A stretch of DNA of 64,000 nucleotides from contig CAZVUY010000002.1 in the NCBI GenBank assembly GCA_964630525.1, positions 33,760 to 97,759 on the forward strand. The letters are read 5' to 3'. This document shows, piece by piece, positions 3,221-36,886 of the stretch (position 1 is its first letter; every line of letters starts with the position of its first letter). The notes beneath the pieces were generated by a model. That model saw only the letters and a program-made list of their open reading frames with translations. It had not been told where the DNA came from and did not search any database. The stretch is from an uncultured Candidatus Saccharibacteria bacterium. GTDB taxonomy: Bacteria > Patescibacteriota > Minisyncoccia > Phycocordibacterales > WO2-35-19. A program made the position numbers and the translations under genes.

Positions 3221-5695
3221 ATGGCTAAAATGGCTAAAAAAGAGGAAAAAAACGATGAAATTCTAAATACTGGGTCTAGTGTGGTGTCGCGCTCGATCGT
3301 GACCGAGATGAAAAAATCCTTCATCGACTATGCCATGTCGGTGATCACTGATCGAGCTTTGCCGGATGTGCGCGATGGCCTAAAGCCGGTTCACCGCCGC
3401 ATTCTCTATGCCATGCATACCATGGGCCTCACCGCTTCGGCTAAGTCTCGAAAGTCGGCCACAGTGGTGGGAGAAGTTTTGGGTAACTACCACCCGCACG
3501 GCGATGTCGCTGCTTATGATGCGATGGTCAAGATGGCTCAAGATTTCGGCTATCGTTACCCACTGATCGTCGGTCAGGGAAACTTTGGTTCAATTGACGG
3601 AGATTCACCAGCGGCGATGCGTTACACCGAAGCCAAGATGAGTCGGATCGCCGGCGAACTTTTGCGTGATATAGGCAAGGAGACGGTCAATTGGGTACCC
3701 AACTACGATGCCACCAAAAAAGAGCCGGCAGTTTTGCCGAGCGCAGCTCCGCAGCTTTTGCTCAACGGCACCTTGGGTATTGCGGTTGGTATGGCGACCA
3801 ATGTGCCACCCCACAATCTAAGAGAAGTGGTAGATGCGACTGTTTATTTGATAGACAACAAAGAGGCGACAACTGAAGATTTGCTGGAATTTGTCCAAGG
3901 TCCGGATTTCCCACTGGGTGGTGTTATTTTCAATGCCAAAGATATCCAACATGCCTATTCGACTGGTCGCGGCGGGGTGGTTTGCCGAGGAGTGGCTGAG
4001 ATCGTGGAAGATAAAAATATTTCCCAAATAGTCATCACTTCTCTACCTTATCGAGTCAATAAACAGTCTCTTGTTGAAAAAATAGCAGAGTTGGTTCGTG
4101 ATAAAAAACTTGAAGGCATCAAGGGTTTGCGTGACGAATCGACCAAGGACATTCGAGTGGTGATCGATCTCAAAAACGGTAGTTATCCGCAAAAAGTACT
4201 CAACTTTCTCTATAAACACACTCAACTTGAGGAAACTTTCCATTTCAACTTGGTGGCGCTCGTAGACGGCGTACCTCAGACCCTTTCGCTCAAAGGTATT
4301 TTGGAGGAGTTTATCAAACATCGACAGATAGTGGTGCGTCGGCGCACCGAATTTGACTTGCGCGAAGCCGAAGCGAGAGAGCATATCTTGCTCGGTCTCA
4401 AAAAGGCACTTGATCATATCGACGAGATCATCAAATTGATCAAGAAGAGCAAGGACGTGGATACCGCTAGAGCAAACTTGATGAAGGAGTTCAAATTCTC
4501 CGAGATTCAAGCCAACGCTATTTTGGAAATGCGACTCCAGAAACTCGCCGGTCTTGAAAGGCAGAAGATCGAAGATGAACTCAATGCGGTGCAGGCTCTG
4601 ATCAAAGAACTCAAAGATATTCTAAGCAATCCCAAAAAGATCCTCTCTATTATCAAGAAGGAACTTTCTGAAATCAGTCAAAAATATGGCGATGATCGTC
4701 GTACCAAGGTGATCAAAGGCGGTGTCAAAGTGCTTTCGATCGAAGATTTGATCGCTGACGAAGACAACACCCTTATTCTGACTGCTGGTGGCTACGTGAA
4801 GCGCACTCACCCAGACGAATATCGCAAACAAAAACGCGGCGGGGTGGGAGTGGTTGATTTGGATACCAAGGAAGAAGATTTTGTAACCAACTTTTTAACA
4901 GCCAGCACTCATTCAGACCTCTTATTCTTCACGGATCGAGGTAAGGCTTACCAAATCAAGATGCACGAATTGCCGGAAGGCAAGCGAGCGACGCGCGGCA
5001 AGTCGATCATGAATTTCCTCTCGCTTTCGGAAGGGGAGAAGGTGACCTCAATCTTACCAATGCCTAAAAATTTGAAAGAAAATAAAGATTTGTCGCTACT
5101 TATGGTGACCAGCGATGGTACCGGCAAAAAAGTTTCAGCTGCCAGTTTCCATGATGTGCGAGCGAGCGGTATTATCGCGATCAGACTTTCTGATGGGGAT
5201 CGGTTGGTATCGGTTTCGGCGGTTACCAAGGGAGATACCTGTGTGGTAGTGACTGCCAAGGGCCAATCAATCCGGTTTAAGGAAAATGATGTTAGGGAAA
5301 TGGGTCGGACTGCCGGTGGAGTGAGAGTGATTAAGTTGAGCAAAAATGACCGGGTGGTTGGCGCTCATCCAGTACCGAAAGAAAAAGAGAAAGACGCTGC
5401 TCTTTTGACCATGGGTGCAGGTGGTTATGGCAAGAAGACTCCGATTGGTGAATACAAAATACAAAATCGTGGTGGCAGCGGTATCAAGACCAGCAATGTG
5501 ACAGCGAAGACTGGCGAGATTATCGCTTCAGCGGTGGTTACCGGTGAAGAGGAGGAGGCAGTGGCTATGTCTAAAAAGAGCCAAGTGATCCGCCTCGGCC
5601 TCTCTGAAATACCGTCATTGGGCCGCTCTACTCAAGGAGTCCGTATCATGAAGCTCTACCCTGGTGACTCCATCGCTTCTTTCATTTGTCTATAG
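3221..5695 (+). CDS. gyrA: DNA gyrase subunit A
   Basis: 824 aa; N-terminal [28 protein letters not shown] and HPHGD motif, active-site region [11 protein letters not shown]-terminal beta-pinwheel repeats. Confidence 0.95.
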
Positions 5696-6397: not shown

Positions 6398-7708
6398 TTG
6401 GGATTTTGGATTTGCTATAATATAACCATGACAAAATTTCAGTTGATCGTCACTGGCATTTTCGGTGCTTTCTTGGTGATCGGGATTATTATTTTCTCAG
6501 CTTACCGAGGTTCCTCGGAAGACGCAGCCAAGATAGTTGTCTGGGGCACCATCTCTAACCTGGCTTTCAATGACATCATCCAATCCACCTCACTCTACCA
6601 AAACAAACTTTTTGATATCACTTATGTACAAAAATCAGAAGCTAGTTTCGACGCTGACTTTATAGACGCACTGGCTTCTGGTACCGGGCCAGACCTTTTC
6701 ATTCTACCGAGTAACAAAATTCTCAAGCATTACAACAAAATTTTCCTGATCCCTTACAATGTTTTCACCGAGCGACAATTCAAAGATTCTTTTATTGAAG
6801 GAGCAGAAATCTACATGGCCCCCGATGGTATTGTTGGGCTACCTATCTACACCGACCCCTTGGTAATGTATTGGAATCGGGCGATCTTTCGCGACGCCAA
6901 ACTTACAGAGCCACCCAAATATTGGGATGAGTTTTACAATCTCGCCAACCTTATCTCGGTCAAAGATGGGGCGCTCAATATTTTGAAAAGCGCGGTTGCT
7001 TTCGGTGAGTTTGCCAACGTCACCAACGCCAAAGAGATAATTGTCAATTTGGCGATGCAGGCCGGTACCCCAGTCACTCTCTGGAATGCGGGTAAGGTGC
7101 AAAGTGTTTTCAATTTTACTTTTGATAAGCCGACTGTTCCAGCCGAAGCGGCGGTCAATTTTTACACCGAATTTGGCAACCCAACCAAACCCTCATACTC
7201 TTGGAACCGTTCTCTACCGAGTTCAGCCAACTACTTTTTAGGCGGAGATTTAGCTTTGTACTTTGGTTTTGCGAGCGAGGTGACTAATCTACAAGTCAAA
7301 AATCCTAACTTGAATTTCGATGTGGCGAGGGTCCCTGTCTCCCGGGAAGGAGGTACTCTGGTTTCTTATGCTGATTTTGGTGCCCTCGCTATCACCAAAT
7401 CTTCTAAAAATCCAAACGCCGCTTTCCAGGTAGCCTCCATCCTCTCCGGTAGCGAGGGGGCCAGTGCCTTTAGCGCTGCTCTAAGATTGCCTTCGGCTCG
7501 GCGTGACCTGCTCAACAAGAGGCCGGAAAATGCTTATCAAAGTGTCTTCCGGGACAGTGCGATCAGGGCCAAGAGTTGGCTTGATCCAGACCAGGCGATG
7601 AGCGATCAGATTTTCAAAAACATGATTGAGTCGATCACAAGCGGTCGAGCGAGGACTACCGCCGCCGTCTCCCGTGCTCACCAAGAACTTTCTAACCTTT
7701 TAAAATAA
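6398..7708 (+). CDS. extracellular solute-binding protein (ABC transporter SBP family 1-like), N-terminal membrane anchor; likely start MTKFQL at 6428
   Basis: 436 aa; signal-anchor TM, then a YWDEF and W/Y-rich sugar-SBP-like fold; stop is 1 nt before the first pilin gene. Confidence 0.6.
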   Translation: MGFWICYNITMTKFQLIVTGIFGAFLVIGIIIFSAYRGSSEDAAKIVVWGTISNLAFNDIIQSTSLYQNKLFDITYVQKSEASFDADFIDALASGTGPDLFILPSNKILKHYNKIFLIPYNVFTERQFKDSFIEGAEIYMAPDGIVGLPIYTDPLVMYWNRAIFRDAKLTEPPKYWDEFYNLANLISVKDGALNILKSAVAFGEFANVTNAKEIIVNLAMQAGTPVTLWNAGKVQSVFNFTFDKPTVPAEAAVNFYTEFGNPTKPSYSWNRSLPSSANYFLGGDLALYFGFASEVTNLQVKNPNLNFDVARVPVSREGGTLVSYADFGALAITKSSKNPNAAFQVASILSGSEGASAFSAALRLPSARRDLLNKRPENAYQSVFRDSAIRAKSWLDPDQAMSDQIFKNMIESITSGRARTTAAVSRAHQELSNLLK

Positions 7709-13952: not shown

Positions 13953-14034
13953 GCCCGGGTGGCGGAATCGGTATACGCAGTCGACTTAAAATCGGCGGCC
14001 TCACGGCTTGTGGGTTCAAGTCCCACCCCGGGCA
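13953..14034 (+). tRNA. tRNA-Leu (anticodon TAA)
   Basis: GCCCGGGTGGCGGAATCGGTATACGCAGTCGACTTAAAATCGGCGG + long variable arm + GTGGGTTCAAGTCCCACCCCGGGCA. Confidence 0.85.
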
Positions 14035-14041
14035 CAAAAAA

Positions 14042-21845: not shown

Positions 21846-21878
21846 CAAAATGAAAACCCCTTTCGGGGATTCATTTTG

Positions 21879-21962
21879 TGCGCCGGGAGGGATTCGAACC
21901 CCCGTAGCCCGATGGGCGACAGATTTACAGTCTGTTGTAATTGACCACTCTACCACCGACGC
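21879..21962 (-). tRNA. tRNA-Tyr (anticodon GTA), long variable arm
   Basis: GCGTCGGTGGTAGAGTGGTCAATTACAACAGACTGTAAATCTGTCGCCCATCGGGCTACGGGGGTTCGAATCCCTCCCGGCGCA; followed by a 24-bp trailer hairpin (21831-21890) that includes the tRNA 3' end. Confidence 0.85.
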
Positions 21963-33874: not shown

Positions 33875-34777
33875 CTAATTCCCTAAAAATTTCTTTACTT
33901 CTTTTTGGGCAGATTTTATTTCGGCCGGTTTAATCCAAACAATTTTTTTATCTTTTTTAAACCATGTCATTTGGCGTTTTGCGTATTGCCAGATTTCTTT
34001 TTCTAAAAGGGCGGTAAGTTCCTTTTTAGAAATTTCGCCTTCCAAAAAATCTGCCAAGCGGCGGTATTCGAGCCCCAATTCTCTCAGGCGCTTATAAGAA
34101 ACACCTTTTTGGTAGAGCCACTTAGCTTCTCTGACCATACCCTTTTTAAGCCTTTTTGCTAATCTCAGATTTATTCTTTGTTTTAATTCCTCATTCTCTA
34201 TTTTGATTCCGATTTTACATACTTCATAATTCGTACTTCTTGATTCAAATTTTGGTACTTTGCCCAAAGCTTTGCAGATCTCGATCGCTCTCACGAGTCG
34301 TCTTGGATTTTTGGAGTCAATATTTTTGGCTCTTTCCGGGTCGAGTTTCTGGAGTATGGCGAAAAGTTTTTCGGTCGATTCTGGCTCCAGTTTCTGGCGT
34401 AACTCCAGGTTTGGTGGTGCTGCTGGTATTTGTTTTGCACCCAATAGAGCGTCTATATAAAAGCCGGTCCCGCCGCAGATAATAGGTAATTTATTTTTCT
34501 GGATAATATTTTCAATTGCTCGATGAGCCAACTGGGTATAATCGGCGGCGGTAAATTTTTGGCGAGGATTGGCCACATCGAGTAGGTGATGAGGCACTCC
34601 CCGCATTTCTTTTTTGGTTATTTTGCCGGTACCAATATTTAAATTTTTATAAACTTGTCTTGAATCAGCCGAGACCACCTCGCCATTAAATTTTAAGGCC
34701 AAGTCAACTGCCAAGTCGCTCTTGCCGCTCGCCGTCGGCCCCAAGATAATCAAAATTTTTAGCTTACCCGTTTTCAT
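33875..34777 (-). CDS. miaA: tRNA dimethylallyltransferase (start at MKTGKLKIL; track ORF opens with GTG at 34870)
   Basis: ILIILGPTASGKSDLA P-loop, SADSRQVYK, GGTGFY motifs. Confidence 0.9.
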   Translation of the reverse strand: MKTGKLKILIILGPTASGKSDLAVDLALKFNGEVVSADSRQVYKNLNIGTGKITKKEMRGVPHHLLDVANPRQKFTAADYTQLAHRAIENIIQKNKLPIICGGTGFYIDALLGAKQIPAAPPNLELRQKLEPESTEKLFAILQKLDPERAKNIDSKNPRRLVRAIEICKALGKVPKFESRSTNYEVCKIGIKIENEELKQRINLRLAKRLKKGMVREAKWLYQKGVSYKRLRELGLEYRRLADFLEGEISKKELTALLEKEIWQYAKRQMTWFKKDKKIVWIKPAEIKSAQKEVKKFLGN

Positions 34778-34915
34778 GAAAATAAAGAAAGGGAGAGAAG
34801 CCCCACGTAAAAGCTTACTCTCCCCTGGGAGTGAATTGTGGTTGGCGGAACGAGGGTGAGTGCCAACCACTTCTTCGCTTGCCCCATCCTCATAATACCA
34901 GCATTGTAATTTTTG

Positions 34916-35140
34916 TCAATCGTTAGGTTTGACTAGAGTAAAACGTGGTCCTTTATAACCAATCTCGGGTTTGTCTATCTTCTCTAGAAACATCTTGATT
35001 GGTCTGATCCAGATTTTCCTCTCTCCATAAAGCGCTTGATAGACTACGAACTCTTCTTTTGTTTCAGAATGTAGACCTACACCAAAAACCTGGTATTCGT
35101 TGCCCTTGAAATGTCTATAAATACCCTTTTTGATTTGCAT
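34916..35140 (-). CDS. DUF1653-like small protein
   Basis: 74 aa; YRHFKGNEYQV...ALYGE pattern typical of DUF1653. Confidence 0.5.
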   Translation of the reverse strand: MQIKKGIYRHFKGNEYQVFGVGLHSETKEEFVVYQALYGERKIWIRPIKMFLEKIDKPEIGYKGPRFTLVKPND

Positions 35141-35190
35141 ATGCTAATTATGATTGATTTTTCGTTTATTTTCAATATAATAAAACAATT

Positions 35191-35273
35191 GCCGCGGTGG
35201 CGGAATGGCAGACGCGATAGACTCAAAATCTATTGATGGCAACATCGTGTGGGTTCAAGTCCCACCCGCGGCA
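35191..35273 (+). tRNA. tRNA-Leu (anticodon CAA)
   Basis: GCCGCGGTGGCGGAATGGCAGACGCGATAGACTCAAAATCTAT + variable arm + GTGGGTTCAAGTCCCACCCGCGGCA. Confidence 0.85.
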
Positions 35274-35275
35274 CA

Positions 35276-35860
35276 ATGAAAAAGCGTGTAAGTAGTGATA
35301 AAAAACTTCATGCGTATATCGTCGGTCTGGCTCTCGGTGACGGAAATCTGTCAAATTCGAATGGGAGAGCTGTTAAGTTAAGGGTTACTTGCGACGCAAA
35401 GTATCAAAAACTGAATAAACACATTTTTGAATCTTTACAGAAATTTCTACCTGATAATAAGGTTTTTGTTTGTAATTCCATTAAAAAGACTTCTGTTGAT
35501 ATTGTTTGTTACTCTAATTATTTAGAAAATTTATTAGGTTGGAAAGCTAAAGGAGGTTCAAAATACTACCAAAAAGTTGAAATACCAGATTGGATCTTAA
35601 GAGATAAAGACTTTATAAGGGAATGTTTGAGAGGTTTGGTTCAGACAGACGGATCGATTTATATAGATAGAGGGTATAAAATGGTAAATATGGTAAGTAA
35701 CATAGAATCTTTAGCTAAATCAACCATAGGGGCAATAATCTCTTTGGGGTACAAACCTAATACACAGGTGCATAACGATCCAAAAACAAGAAAATATACA
35801 ATAAGAATTTCAAAAGATGTAAATAAGTTTATTAAGGATATAAAACTATGGAAGAAATAG
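35276..35860 (+). CDS. LAGLIDADG-family homing endonuclease (two-motif, single-chain)
   Basis: ~195 aa; motif 1 LHAYIVGLALGDGNLS, motif 2 LRGLVQTDGSIY; AT-rich codon usage; ATG lies 3 nt after the tRNA-Leu(CAA) 3' end (track ORF begins 35249 inside the tRNA). Confidence 0.8.
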   Translation: MKKRVSSDKKLHAYIVGLALGDGNLSNSNGRAVKLRVTCDAKYQKLNKHIFESLQKFLPDNKVFVCNSIKKTSVDIVCYSNYLENLLGWKAKGGSKYYQKVEIPDWILRDKDFIRECLRGLVQTDGSIYIDRGYKMVNMVSNIESLAKSTIGAIISLGYKPNTQVHNDPKTRKYTIRISKDVNKFIKDIKLWKK

Positions 35861-35893
35861 AAAAAACATTAATTATGTTAAAATACCAACATT

Positions 35894-36886
35894 ATGAACA
35901 GTAATTCCAATTTTTATCAAGATTCAATCTTTTGGGTTGAAGTCGACAAGATAAAACCCAACCCATTTCAACCTCGCCGCGAGTTTGATGAGACGGCACT
36001 TCGCGCCTTGGCTGATTCGATCAAGCAATACGGTGTTTTGCAGGCATTGGTGGTGACTCGCAAAGAAGTGATCAGAGATGATGGTTTGGGGGTGGAGTAT
36101 GAGCTAATCGCTGGCGAAAGAAGGTTGCGAGCTTCCAAGATGGCTGGTCTTGTTCAGGTGCCAGTTATCATCAGAATGGCCGAAGAACAGTCGGCCAAAA
36201 ATGACCTGATGAAGCTCGAGCTTGCTATCATTGAAAATGTGCAACGTGAAGATTTGAACCCAGTCGAGAGAGCTAAAGCTTTCAAGAAATTGGTTGATGA
36301 ATTTGGTTTTAGGCATCATCAGATTGCTCACAAGATCGGTAAGAGCCGAGTTTATGTGACCAACAGTATGCGCATTCTCGATCTGCCGGAAGAAATACTC
36401 CAAGCCCTTTCGGAGGGTAAGATCAATGAAGGTCATACCAGGCCATTACTGATGCTCATCGATCGTCCGGAAGAACAAAAGGTTCTTTTTCAAGATATTA
36501 TTTTGCGGAAGATGAATGTGAGGGACGCTGAGCAGGCAGCAAGGCAGATCGCTATTGAAAGAGTGAGGAAAATCAATTCGGTGCTTAGTCCTGATTTGGC
36601 AGAGATGGAAGAGAAATTTATGGAATCGTTGCGCACAAGAGTGAAGATCGAAAAAAGAGATCGGGATCGGGGTGGCAAATTGCTCATCGAATTTTTCTCA
36701 GACGAAGACCTGATGTTGCTGCTCAATATGATCACTCGCAACAGGGGGGTGGGGACAACTGATCCTAATCAAGGCGAAGTTGTCATTGGCGAAGGTGTCG
36801 ATGATCGGACGGGTGAAGAGATAAAGCAAGCCGAAGATCGGCCGATCGAAGACGACCTTTATTCAATCAAAAATTTTAGTATTTAA
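35894..36886 (+). CDS. parB: ParB/Spo0J-family partition protein
   Basis: ParB N-domain GERRLRASKMAG...VPVII, HTH region HQIAHKIGKSRVYVTNSMRIL. Confidence 0.85.
   Translation: MNSNSNFYQDSIFWVEVDKIKPNPFQPRREFDETALRALADSIKQYGVLQALVVTRKEVIRDDGLGVEYELIAGERRLRASKMAGLVQVPVIIRMAEEQSAKNDLMKLELAIIENVQREDLNPVERAKAFKKLVDEFGFRHHQIAHKIGKSRVYVTNSMRILDLPEEILQALSEGKINEGHTRPLLMLIDRPEEQKVLFQDIILRKMNVRDAEQAARQIAIERVRKINSVLSPDLAEMEEKFMESLRTRVKIEKRDRDRGGKLLIEFFSDEDLMLLLNMITRNRGVGTTDPNQGEVVIGEGVDDRTGEEIKQAEDRPIEDDLYSIKNFSI

Follow-up and report, generated by a model that had tools for sequence, protein, structure and literature searches.

The stretch of DNA analysed here, referred to as the window, comprises 64,000 nucleotides (nt) of contig CAZVUY010000002.1 from an uncultured Candidatus Saccharibacteria bacterium. 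Coordinates are positions in the window and refer to the + strand unless stated otherwise. We describe a gene for a LAGLIDADG endonuclease that lies directly behind the gene for tRNA-Leu(CAA) in this ultra-small bacterium, and the gene family to which it belongs. The open reading frame (ORF) extends from 35276 to 35860 (ATG at 35276-35278, TAG at 35858-35860) and encodes 194 amino acids (aa) and a stop. The tRNA gene, which does not encode the CCA end, is placed at 35191-35274 by ARAGORN and at 35191-35273 by Rfam (RF00005, 60.8 bits). The acceptor pairing GCCGCGG/CCGCGGC identifies A35273 as the discriminator base. The discriminator and the start codon are separated by a two-base spacer CA (C35274 and A35275; 35274-35275), and the ATG begins at the third base after the discriminator. 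It is in this sense that an earlier note on this DNA was right to start the ORF 3 nt after the tRNA. A longer frame that opens at a GTG inside the tRNA gene (35249) appears in a mechanical ORF list, and was rejected because the extension just translates the T-arm.

The ORF encodes two LAGLIDADG motifs. Motif 1 is IVGLALGDGN (aa 15-24, 35318-35347) with the putative catalytic residue D22, and motif 2 is GLVQTDGSIY (aa 120-129, 35633-35662) with the putative catalytic residue D125. In alignment A1, G21, D22 and G23 as well as D125 and G126 are invariant in the 31 aligned homologues. Of 83 family members, 82 have an intact motif 1; in the remaining one, L015, GDG is replaced by DNG. Four members depart from the strict motif 2 pattern, although the Asp-Gly is still kept (TDGA or TDGP). 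The two-motif ORF recognized by the earlier note is confirmed in its coordinates and in both motifs, and Pfam, the predicted fold and the 489 homologues described below agree with it.

A profile search, which the earlier note proposed as a check on the LAGLIDADG assignment, leaves the fold standing. Residues 112-187 match Pfam LAGLIDADG_3 at 26.9 bits against a cut-off of 22.5, and the N-terminal half matches LAGLIDADG_2 below the cut-off (17.6 vs 25). A search of the Protein Data Bank (PDB) with a sequence profile gave only weak matches to I-DmoI (E ~0.015), which ranked under spurious matches to BamA POTRA domains. A fold search was therefore needed. The AlphaFold model, built with 31 homologues, has a predicted local distance difference test score (pLDDT) of 94 and a predicted template modelling score (pTM) of 0.90. 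The predicted fold consists of two alpha-beta-beta-alpha-beta-beta-alpha halves, with the secondary-structure order H-E-E-H-E-E-H repeated twice. In a Foldseek search against the PDB the top matches are all LAGLIDADG proteins, with a probability of 1.00 for I-DmoI, PI-SceI, I-AniI and I-SceI, and the match to I-DmoI spans the full length (template modelling (TM) score 0.70-0.76). Neither the profile search nor the model revealed intein domains, a helix-turn-helix (HTH) or any other extra domain in the 194-aa protein, and the WhiA profiles are below threshold (Pfam WhiA_N, 16.5 vs 23.4; NCBIfam, 15.6 vs 44.1). Sequence and modelled structure together identify ORF 35276-35860 as a free-standing monomeric double-motif LAGLIDADG enzyme, for which endonuclease function is predicted.

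A family at the 3' edge of tRNA-Leu(CAA)

The protein belongs to a family of at least 489 homologous protein cluster representatives, all of about 190 aa. The best 120 homologues are 52-100% identical, and most of the named ones are from Patescibacteria. When one genome per GTDB species was scanned, relatives turned out to be encoded in 228 stretches. From these the best 80 loci were taken; together with two carriers found later they provide 76 evaluable carrier loci, all from different species. The homologue lies directly 3' of tRNA-Leu(CAA) and on the same strand in 72 of the 76. In three others tRNA-Leu(CAA) is adjacent in another arrangement (L031, L053 and L072), and in one the tRNA is absent. 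The linkage holds with either parB or miaA as the downstream neighbour. The median distance of the start codon from the mature tRNA end is 4 nt, and in 37 of 68 loci it falls within -2 to +4 nt. At typical junctions GGCA is followed by CAATG, CATG or CTTG, and where CCA is encoded the start codon overlaps or abuts it (CCATG). This large Patescibacteria family has the 3' edge of tRNA-Leu(CAA) as its fixed address.

The family gene is part of a wider conserved neighbourhood. The block relA-parB-tRNA-Leu(CAA)-miaA is found across the phylum, and within it the tRNA, with the endonuclease gene if present, can point either way between parB and miaA. The endonuclease stop codon overlaps or abuts the miaA start in many loci. 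In the window tRNA-Leu(CAA) is inverted relative to miaA (33875-34870, - strand), which lies together with a DUF1653 gene on the opposite strand upstream of the tRNA. The ATG of parB is at 35894, and a relA/spoT-type gene lies downstream of parB. The ORF is intergenic, 2 nt from the tRNA and, measured from its stop codon, 33 nt from parB. A sister lineage (L165) has the same layout; its identity to the window is 82% for the endonuclease, 96% for the tRNA, 75% for ParB, 71% for RelA and 57% for MiaA. No second LAGLIDADG copy was found in the window with the family hidden Markov model applied to all six-frame ORFs.

Some loci of the family have a more complex layout. The 3' end of tRNA-Leu(CAA) is repeated about 250 nt downstream, beside the endonuclease gene, in L015 (3671-4000) and L056 (3649-3985). 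The L015 repeat includes the terminator hairpin, and tRNA-like fragments occur in the DNA between the two repeats of both loci. These two loci and a few others (L006, L063, L076) have an endonuclease gene with its own -10 box instead of one abutting the tRNA. The L015 copy, the one with the altered motif 1, is matched up to aa 154 of 194, and about 216 nt of contig follow. Extra DNA beside the endonuclease gene in L002 and L006 is by sequence probably made up of ordinary host genes, not cargo; read by eye, the ORFs look Mur-ligase-like and Nudix-like.

Matches beside a second tRNA occur in two other loci. Matches with 25-29% identity to the window protein were found by tblastn in L097 (4167-4664, - strand) and L107 (781-1293, + strand), in both cases just upstream of tRNA-Tyr(GTA) and on the same strand. 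In L097 the match can be read as a LAGLIDADG gene, with GIMLGDGHIS and FFDTDGSVY as its motifs. The tRNA-Tyr gene of the window (21878-21962) has no LAGLIDADG-type neighbour.

Sporadic occupancy and tRNA alleles

The occupancy of the address was assessed in a sample blind to the endonuclease. Eighty metagenome loci were collected by way of ParB; 54 have tRNA-Leu(CAA) beside parB, and 45 of them have enough downstream sequence to be evaluated. The family gene is intact in two of the 45 (L090 and L144). One (L114) retains a relic of the first 40 codons, fused before the miaA start. A different, distantly related LAGLIDADG lineage is found behind tRNA-Leu(CAA) in two (L106 and L130), and 40 have no trace of a LAGLIDADG gene. 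Occupancy is about 4-7% of the sampled relatives that share the same operon. The comparison of tRNA-Leu(CAA) loci in relatives that the earlier note called for shows a gene that is present in some and absent from others. That note would have taken universal presence with conserved synteny as the mark of a domesticated gene. The phylum does keep the synteny, but most of the sampled relatives have no such ORF.

The relic in L114 (about 4730-4850, - strand) consists of the remaining 40 codons, which read MNIINTNTAYIIGVAIGDGNLSNSNGRAVRLRVTCDNKYE and end in two stop symbols, after which miaA starts directly. Members of the L106/L130 lineage are 217-239 aa long, with the motifs VGLLVTDGNLS and GHLDGDGSI, and start +37 (L106) and +4 (L130) after the tRNA. 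The tRNA alleles of these two loci are 73-75% identical to those of close relatives without an endonuclease.

A clean empty site is found at the tRNA 3' end of L082, which is the closest relative in the ParB sample (ParB 72% identical) and has the orientation of the window. Homology between the two continues through the tRNA and CAAT and resumes at TAAAAT before parB. From these alignment edges it follows that about 600 bp in the window (the ORF and ~20 nt; approximately 35278-35878) replace about 14 T-rich bases. TAAAAT (35879-35884), the downstream edge of the insert, is common to the L082 empty site. It is a -10-like box 9 nt before the parB ATG and may function as a promoter element.

A comparison of two occupied loci points to replacement. 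L014 and L061 have ParB proteins that are 93% identical and flanks with 79-85% DNA identity, but their endonucleases are only 51% identical and their tRNAs differ. The divergence begins about 60 nt upstream of the tRNA, and promoter, tRNA and endonuclease gene are all replaced. Just behind the resident gene of L061, at about 4561-4661, an L014-type endonuclease gene has left some 100 nt of its 3' end. This relic is 85% identical by BLASTN to L014 4505-4605. We interpret it as the footprint of one cassette overwriting another. Strain-level presence/absence polymorphism was sought by exact look-ups of the window ParB and DUF1653 proteins, and these gave only the same contig.

The tRNA itself was compared in pairs of loci with ParB identity of at least 80%; the pairs are non-independent and represent about eight events. 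Where both loci lack a LAGLIDADG gene, the median tRNA-Leu(CAA) identity is 0.98 (n=30 pairs). Where the pair differs in LAGLIDADG presence, it is 0.74 (n=17; Mann-Whitney p=7e-7). All parts of the tRNA are affected (acceptor, D, anticodon, variable and T arms), so that whole alleles differ and not a few point mutations. The tRNA of the window, an allele linked to the endonuclease gene, is 96% identical to that of L165, a carrier, and 76% identical to that of L082, which has no endonuclease gene. Because the whole allele differs with LAGLIDADG presence in about six of eight independent close-host contrasts, the tRNA seems to move together with the endonuclease gene. Taken together, these comparisons moderately support a spread in which the tRNA is co-converted. 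The earlier note had suggested an invasive copy that uses the tRNA gene as landing and expression site. The L082 empty site at the tRNA 3' end agrees with this, but the tRNA would be more than a landing pad, since its allele appears to travel along.

The cut site could lie inside the resident tRNA gene or at the junction of the tRNA with downstream DNA. No tRNA positions that could point to the target separate carrier from non-carrier alleles cleanly, in two samples that differ in phylogenetic breadth. The T-arm and acceptor 3' end of tRNA-Leu(TAA) in the window (14015-14035) differ from those of tRNA-Leu(CAA) at 2 of 21 bases. If the enzyme recognises only this part of the tRNA gene, tRNA-Leu(TAA) would be a second near-site in the same genome.

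Expression signals at the tRNA junction

The only promoter-like site found on the + strand before the ORF lies upstream of the tRNA. It is TTGATT-16 nt-TATAAT at 35154-35181 (consensus scan, 10/12 matches), ends 9 nt before the tRNA 5' end and is also conserved upstream of the tRNA in L082 and L165. No terminator-like site was found between tRNA-Leu(CAA) and parB, and no Shine-Dalgarno (SD)-like motif before the endonuclease ORF. Co-transcription of the endonuclease gene with the tRNA, as proposed in the earlier note, fits this layout of promoter and terminator signals. That note also drew attention to the missing promoter and ribosome binding site. The ORF has neither of its own, and the lack of a ribosome binding site is genome-wide: only 4 of the 30 long ORFs of the window (>=200 aa) have an SD-like motif. 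Many ORFs of the window have a TATAAT or similar box 5-9 nt before the ATG, for example those at 6428, 15921 (- strand), 38273 (- strand) and 18175. This suggests that translation in this genome as a rule starts without an SD motif, probably in leaderless fashion.

The tight junction is not confined to carriers. In relatives without the endonuclease, miaA starts 0-7 nt after tRNA-Leu(CAA) (L084, L085, L091, L124, L147, L149, L159). Since miaA itself has this position, the junction appears to be a native design into which the endonuclease gene slipped. MiaA is the A37 isopentenyltransferase, and its substrates include tRNAs reading UNN codons such as tRNA-Leu(CAA). With miaA abutting the gene for a substrate of its product, a tRNA and the enzyme that modifies it appear to share a conserved transcription unit. 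In loci that have a spacer, TATAAT is often found 6-7 nt before the endonuclease start codon (L006, L033, L035, L070).

Proposed mobility, its alternatives and known systems

We consider it probable that the gene is a free-standing homing endonuclease that moves as a cassette with the tRNA and is expressed from the tRNA promoter on a near-leaderless mRNA. Transcription would begin at the site upstream of the tRNA (35154-35181) and produce a tRNA-mRNA precursor, the gene having neither a promoter nor a Shine-Dalgarno sequence of its own. Once the tRNA 3' end had been matured at the discriminator, the remaining mRNA would have a leader of 2 nt (CA). This would be translated as a leaderless message, apparently the normal mode in this genome. 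The gene would spread by recurrent homing, in which a presumed double-strand break in a sensitive locus is repaired from a carrier. Recurrent homing is suggested by presence at a few percent and by empty, decayed and overwritten copies, in a gene that is nevertheless under purifying selection and keeps its catalytic Asp residues. Repair would proceed by gene conversion across the common parB/miaA flanks. The repair tract would take in the adjoining tRNA, so that the cassette replaces the resident tRNA allele, an outcome in part visible in the close-host contrasts.

A more specific version of this model, which we put forward only tentatively, is that the endonuclease has the resident tRNA-Leu(CAA) genes as its target and is accompanied by a tRNA allele that resists cleavage, its message being made leaderless by tRNA 3' processing. 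If this is true, a drive-like cassette of tRNA and endonuclease overwrites an essential tRNA gene of Patescibacteria again and again, which would account for close relatives whose tRNA-Leu(CAA) genes are only about 70-75% identical. Processing of the tRNA 3' end would then be the bacterial counterpart of mitochondrial tRNA punctuation.

The cassette model would have wider consequences as well. Throughout a major and mostly uncultured phylum, turnover of an essential tRNA gene would be driven by a selfish nuclease. The family would amount to a natural collection of hundreds of monomeric meganucleases that are compact (~190 aa) and whose specificities are related but have diverged. It would also be a concrete case in which to ask whether bacteria use tRNA processing to produce leaderless mRNAs.

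Selection and divergence bear on mobility. The ratio of nonsynonymous to synonymous substitution (dN/dS) is 0.05-0.11 in six endonuclease gene pairs, as low as that of ParB, and 0.088 between the window and L165. Intact copies, which keep both catalytic Asp residues, are by this measure under strong purifying selection. This counts for mobility, because a stranded selfish gene would not stay so constrained. Synonymous divergence (pS) between the window and L165 is 0.58 for the endonuclease gene vs 0.77-0.78 for parB and relA, and five other pairs differ in the same direction. The lower value could mean later transfer, but AT-biased codons confound the comparison. Endonuclease distances level off at about 0.46, whereas ParB distances climb to 0.6. 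Correlations in Mantel tests are higher among host proteins (r 0.49-0.65) than between the endonuclease and host proteins (r 0.21-0.51), and this too was counted for mobility. Mantel tests of endonuclease, tRNA and ParB distances are all weak (r=0.17-0.51) and not decisive.

The earlier note remarked on the AT-rich codon usage of the ORF, and the guanine plus cytosine (GC) fraction is 0.29-0.32 inside the ORF and 0.40-0.47 in the flanks. In 79 of 81 loci the flanks are richer in GC than the endonuclease gene, by about 8 points on average. Low GC was therefore rejected as a mark of recent import, being a constant family-wide offset that tracks the GC of the host.

Several observations weigh against the cassette model. 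Endonuclease GC follows host GC closely (r=0.83, slope 0.79), the closest endonuclease pairs are mostly the closest ParB pairs, and endonuclease divergence partly follows the host, as the Mantel values of 0.21-0.51 show. Because both composition and divergence track the host, a good part of the history is vertical, with transfers, if any, between fairly close relatives. The tRNA evidence has its own exceptions. The pairs in the tRNA test reduce to the eight or so contrasts already mentioned, and in two of these, L058/L129 (0.95) and L144/L152 (0.94), the tRNA was not replaced. The correlation of tRNA with endonuclease distances is weak (r=0.20), and no donor with a near-identical cassette of tRNA and endonuclease was found in a distant host among the sampled loci. 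As to expression, TTG or GTG starts occur in 11 of the 37 tight junctions, a poor fit to a strictly leaderless mechanism.

The alternative that draws most on these points is a single ancient insertion in an early Patescibacteria ancestor. The gene would now be immobile, a passenger of the tRNA operon that is inherited only vertically and has been lost many times. The phylum-wide synteny of relA-parB-tRNA-(endonuclease)-miaA, the correspondence of endonuclease with host GC, the nearest endonuclease pairs being mostly the nearest host pairs and the shared arrangement of the L165 sister lineage all agree with it. An immobile selfish gene should, however, decay, and dN/dS of 0.05-0.11 with catalytic motifs intact in 82 of 83 members is not decay. 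Nor does vertical descent explain the near-identical hosts L014 and L061, with their 51%-identical endonucleases and the relic of an overwritten copy in L061, or the different whole tRNA alleles of close carrier and non-carrier hosts. The plateau of endonuclease distances at about 0.46, when ParB reaches 0.6, and the occupation of the site by another LAGLIDADG lineage in L106 and L130 point the same way. We regard an ancient, immobile insertion as unlikely.

Domestication offers another explanation for the constraint and for the position beside the tRNA. A LAGLIDADG protein could serve the host, for example as a DNA- or RNA-binding factor of the tRNA-Leu(CAA)/miaA operon. Purifying selection equals that on ParB, mean endonuclease divergence (0.46) is not above that of ParB, RelA or MiaA in the same genomes, and the tRNA linkage is kept even in the rearranged loci L031, L053 and L072. 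WhiA, which is among the fold matches, shows that LAGLIDADG folds can be domesticated. A host function sits poorly with a gene found in only about 4-7% of the sampled relatives with the same operon, and with clean empty sites and relics. Furthermore, WhiA lost the catalytic Asp residues and gained an HTH, whereas the 194-aa protein keeps both Asp residues and has no extra domain. A domesticated gene is in our view quite improbable.

The earlier note found no intron or intein at the locus but left room for the remnant of a mobile intron. The first statement is borne out and the second must be abandoned. Most characterised LAGLIDADG enzymes sit in introns or inteins, so a relic of a group I intron or intein that had lost its ribozyme or splicing domains could be envisaged, and Patescibacteria rRNA genes are rich in LAGLIDADG-bearing insertions (PMC11270868). 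At this locus, no group I intron or other RNA family was detected in 34800-36200 at E<=10, and no group I intron window-wide at gathering scores. The tRNA is intact and uninterrupted, the protein has no intein domains, and the insert is taken up entirely by the ORF, with 2 nt to the tRNA and 33 nt to parB. This close packing is repeated at 72 loci. Descent from an intron or intein is highly improbable. Least credible of all is an origin as cargo carried by an integrase-type island. The 3' ends of tRNA genes are classic sites of integration, and L015 and L056 have a tRNA 3' end duplicated ~250 nt downstream, but there is no integrase here, the window has no att-like repeat of this tRNA end (elsewhere only the tRNA-Leu(TAA) T-arm at 14015 matches), the insert of ~600 bp is the ORF only, and 2.9 million viral contigs (IMG/VR) contain one distant relative (36% identity).

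The cassette model is the preferred reading. Introns, inteins and phage genomes are where most known homing endonucleases reside; the present genes form a large free-standing LAGLIDADG family in bacterial chromosomes, with a single fixed address. The gene type itself is not new, because some database entries already name family members 'LAGLIDADG family homing endonuclease'. No description of an association between LAGLIDADG genes and tRNA-Leu(CAA) was found in full-text literature searches. The phylum-wide, free-standing arrangement at one specific tRNA, and its proposed cassette behaviour, are apparently undescribed.

In structure the closest known enzyme is I-DmoI. Its chains of 188-200 aa compare with 194 aa here, and both enzymes have two motifs and the same double fold in one chain. 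The Foldseek match (TM 0.70-0.76) extends over ~190 columns, and I-DmoI is the best true match in the PDB sequence search (E ~0.015). Sequence identity is only 16-18%, and I-DmoI resides inside a group I intron of an archaeal 23S rRNA gene, whereas the window gene stands free behind a bacterial tRNA. WhiA shares the LAGLIDADG fold (Foldseek matches 3hyj and 8dy9), and some sources mislabel family members as WhiA. Unlike WhiA, the window protein is below the WhiA thresholds, has no C-terminal HTH, keeps the catalytic Asp residues and is not universal.

Free-standing LAGLIDADG ORFs that are intergenic and intronless have been reported in many mitochondrial genomes and, more generally, in fungal and algal organelles. 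The release of leaderless mRNA by tRNA processing is also established there, in the mitochondrial tRNA-punctuation model. No fixed tRNA partner has been reported for the organelle ORFs, whereas the window family is tied to one tRNA species in 72 of 76 loci, in a phylum of bacteria with a free-living or episymbiotic life. Within the same phylum, insertion sequences in the rRNA genes of the candidate phyla radiation (CPR)/Patescibacteria encode LAGLIDADG endonucleases (PMC11270868; PMC11809585). These belong to the same superfamily and have a patchy, site-specific distribution ascribed to homing (PMC11270868). They lie within 16S and 23S rRNA genes, while the window family is intergenic and tied to tRNA-Leu(CAA); PMC11270868 makes no mention of tRNA.

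The closest parallel in behaviour is SegB of phage T4, a free-standing GIY-YIG homing endonuclease in the T4 tRNA gene cluster. The site that SegB recognises takes in the conserved T-psi-C stem-loop of a tRNA gene (PMC2330249). SegB drives the inheritance of its own gene and of the surrounding tRNA genes, and tRNA-region markers of the recipient are lost (PMC2330249). Co-inheritance of endonuclease and tRNA is the behaviour proposed here. The two systems differ in fold, GIY-YIG vs LAGLIDADG, and in setting, phage co-infection vs a cellular chromosome, and the cleavage and homing of SegB have been demonstrated by experiment, where those of the present family are inferred. The window gene shares with intronless homing of the T4 Seg/Mob type its intergenic position beside the gene region that would be mobilised.

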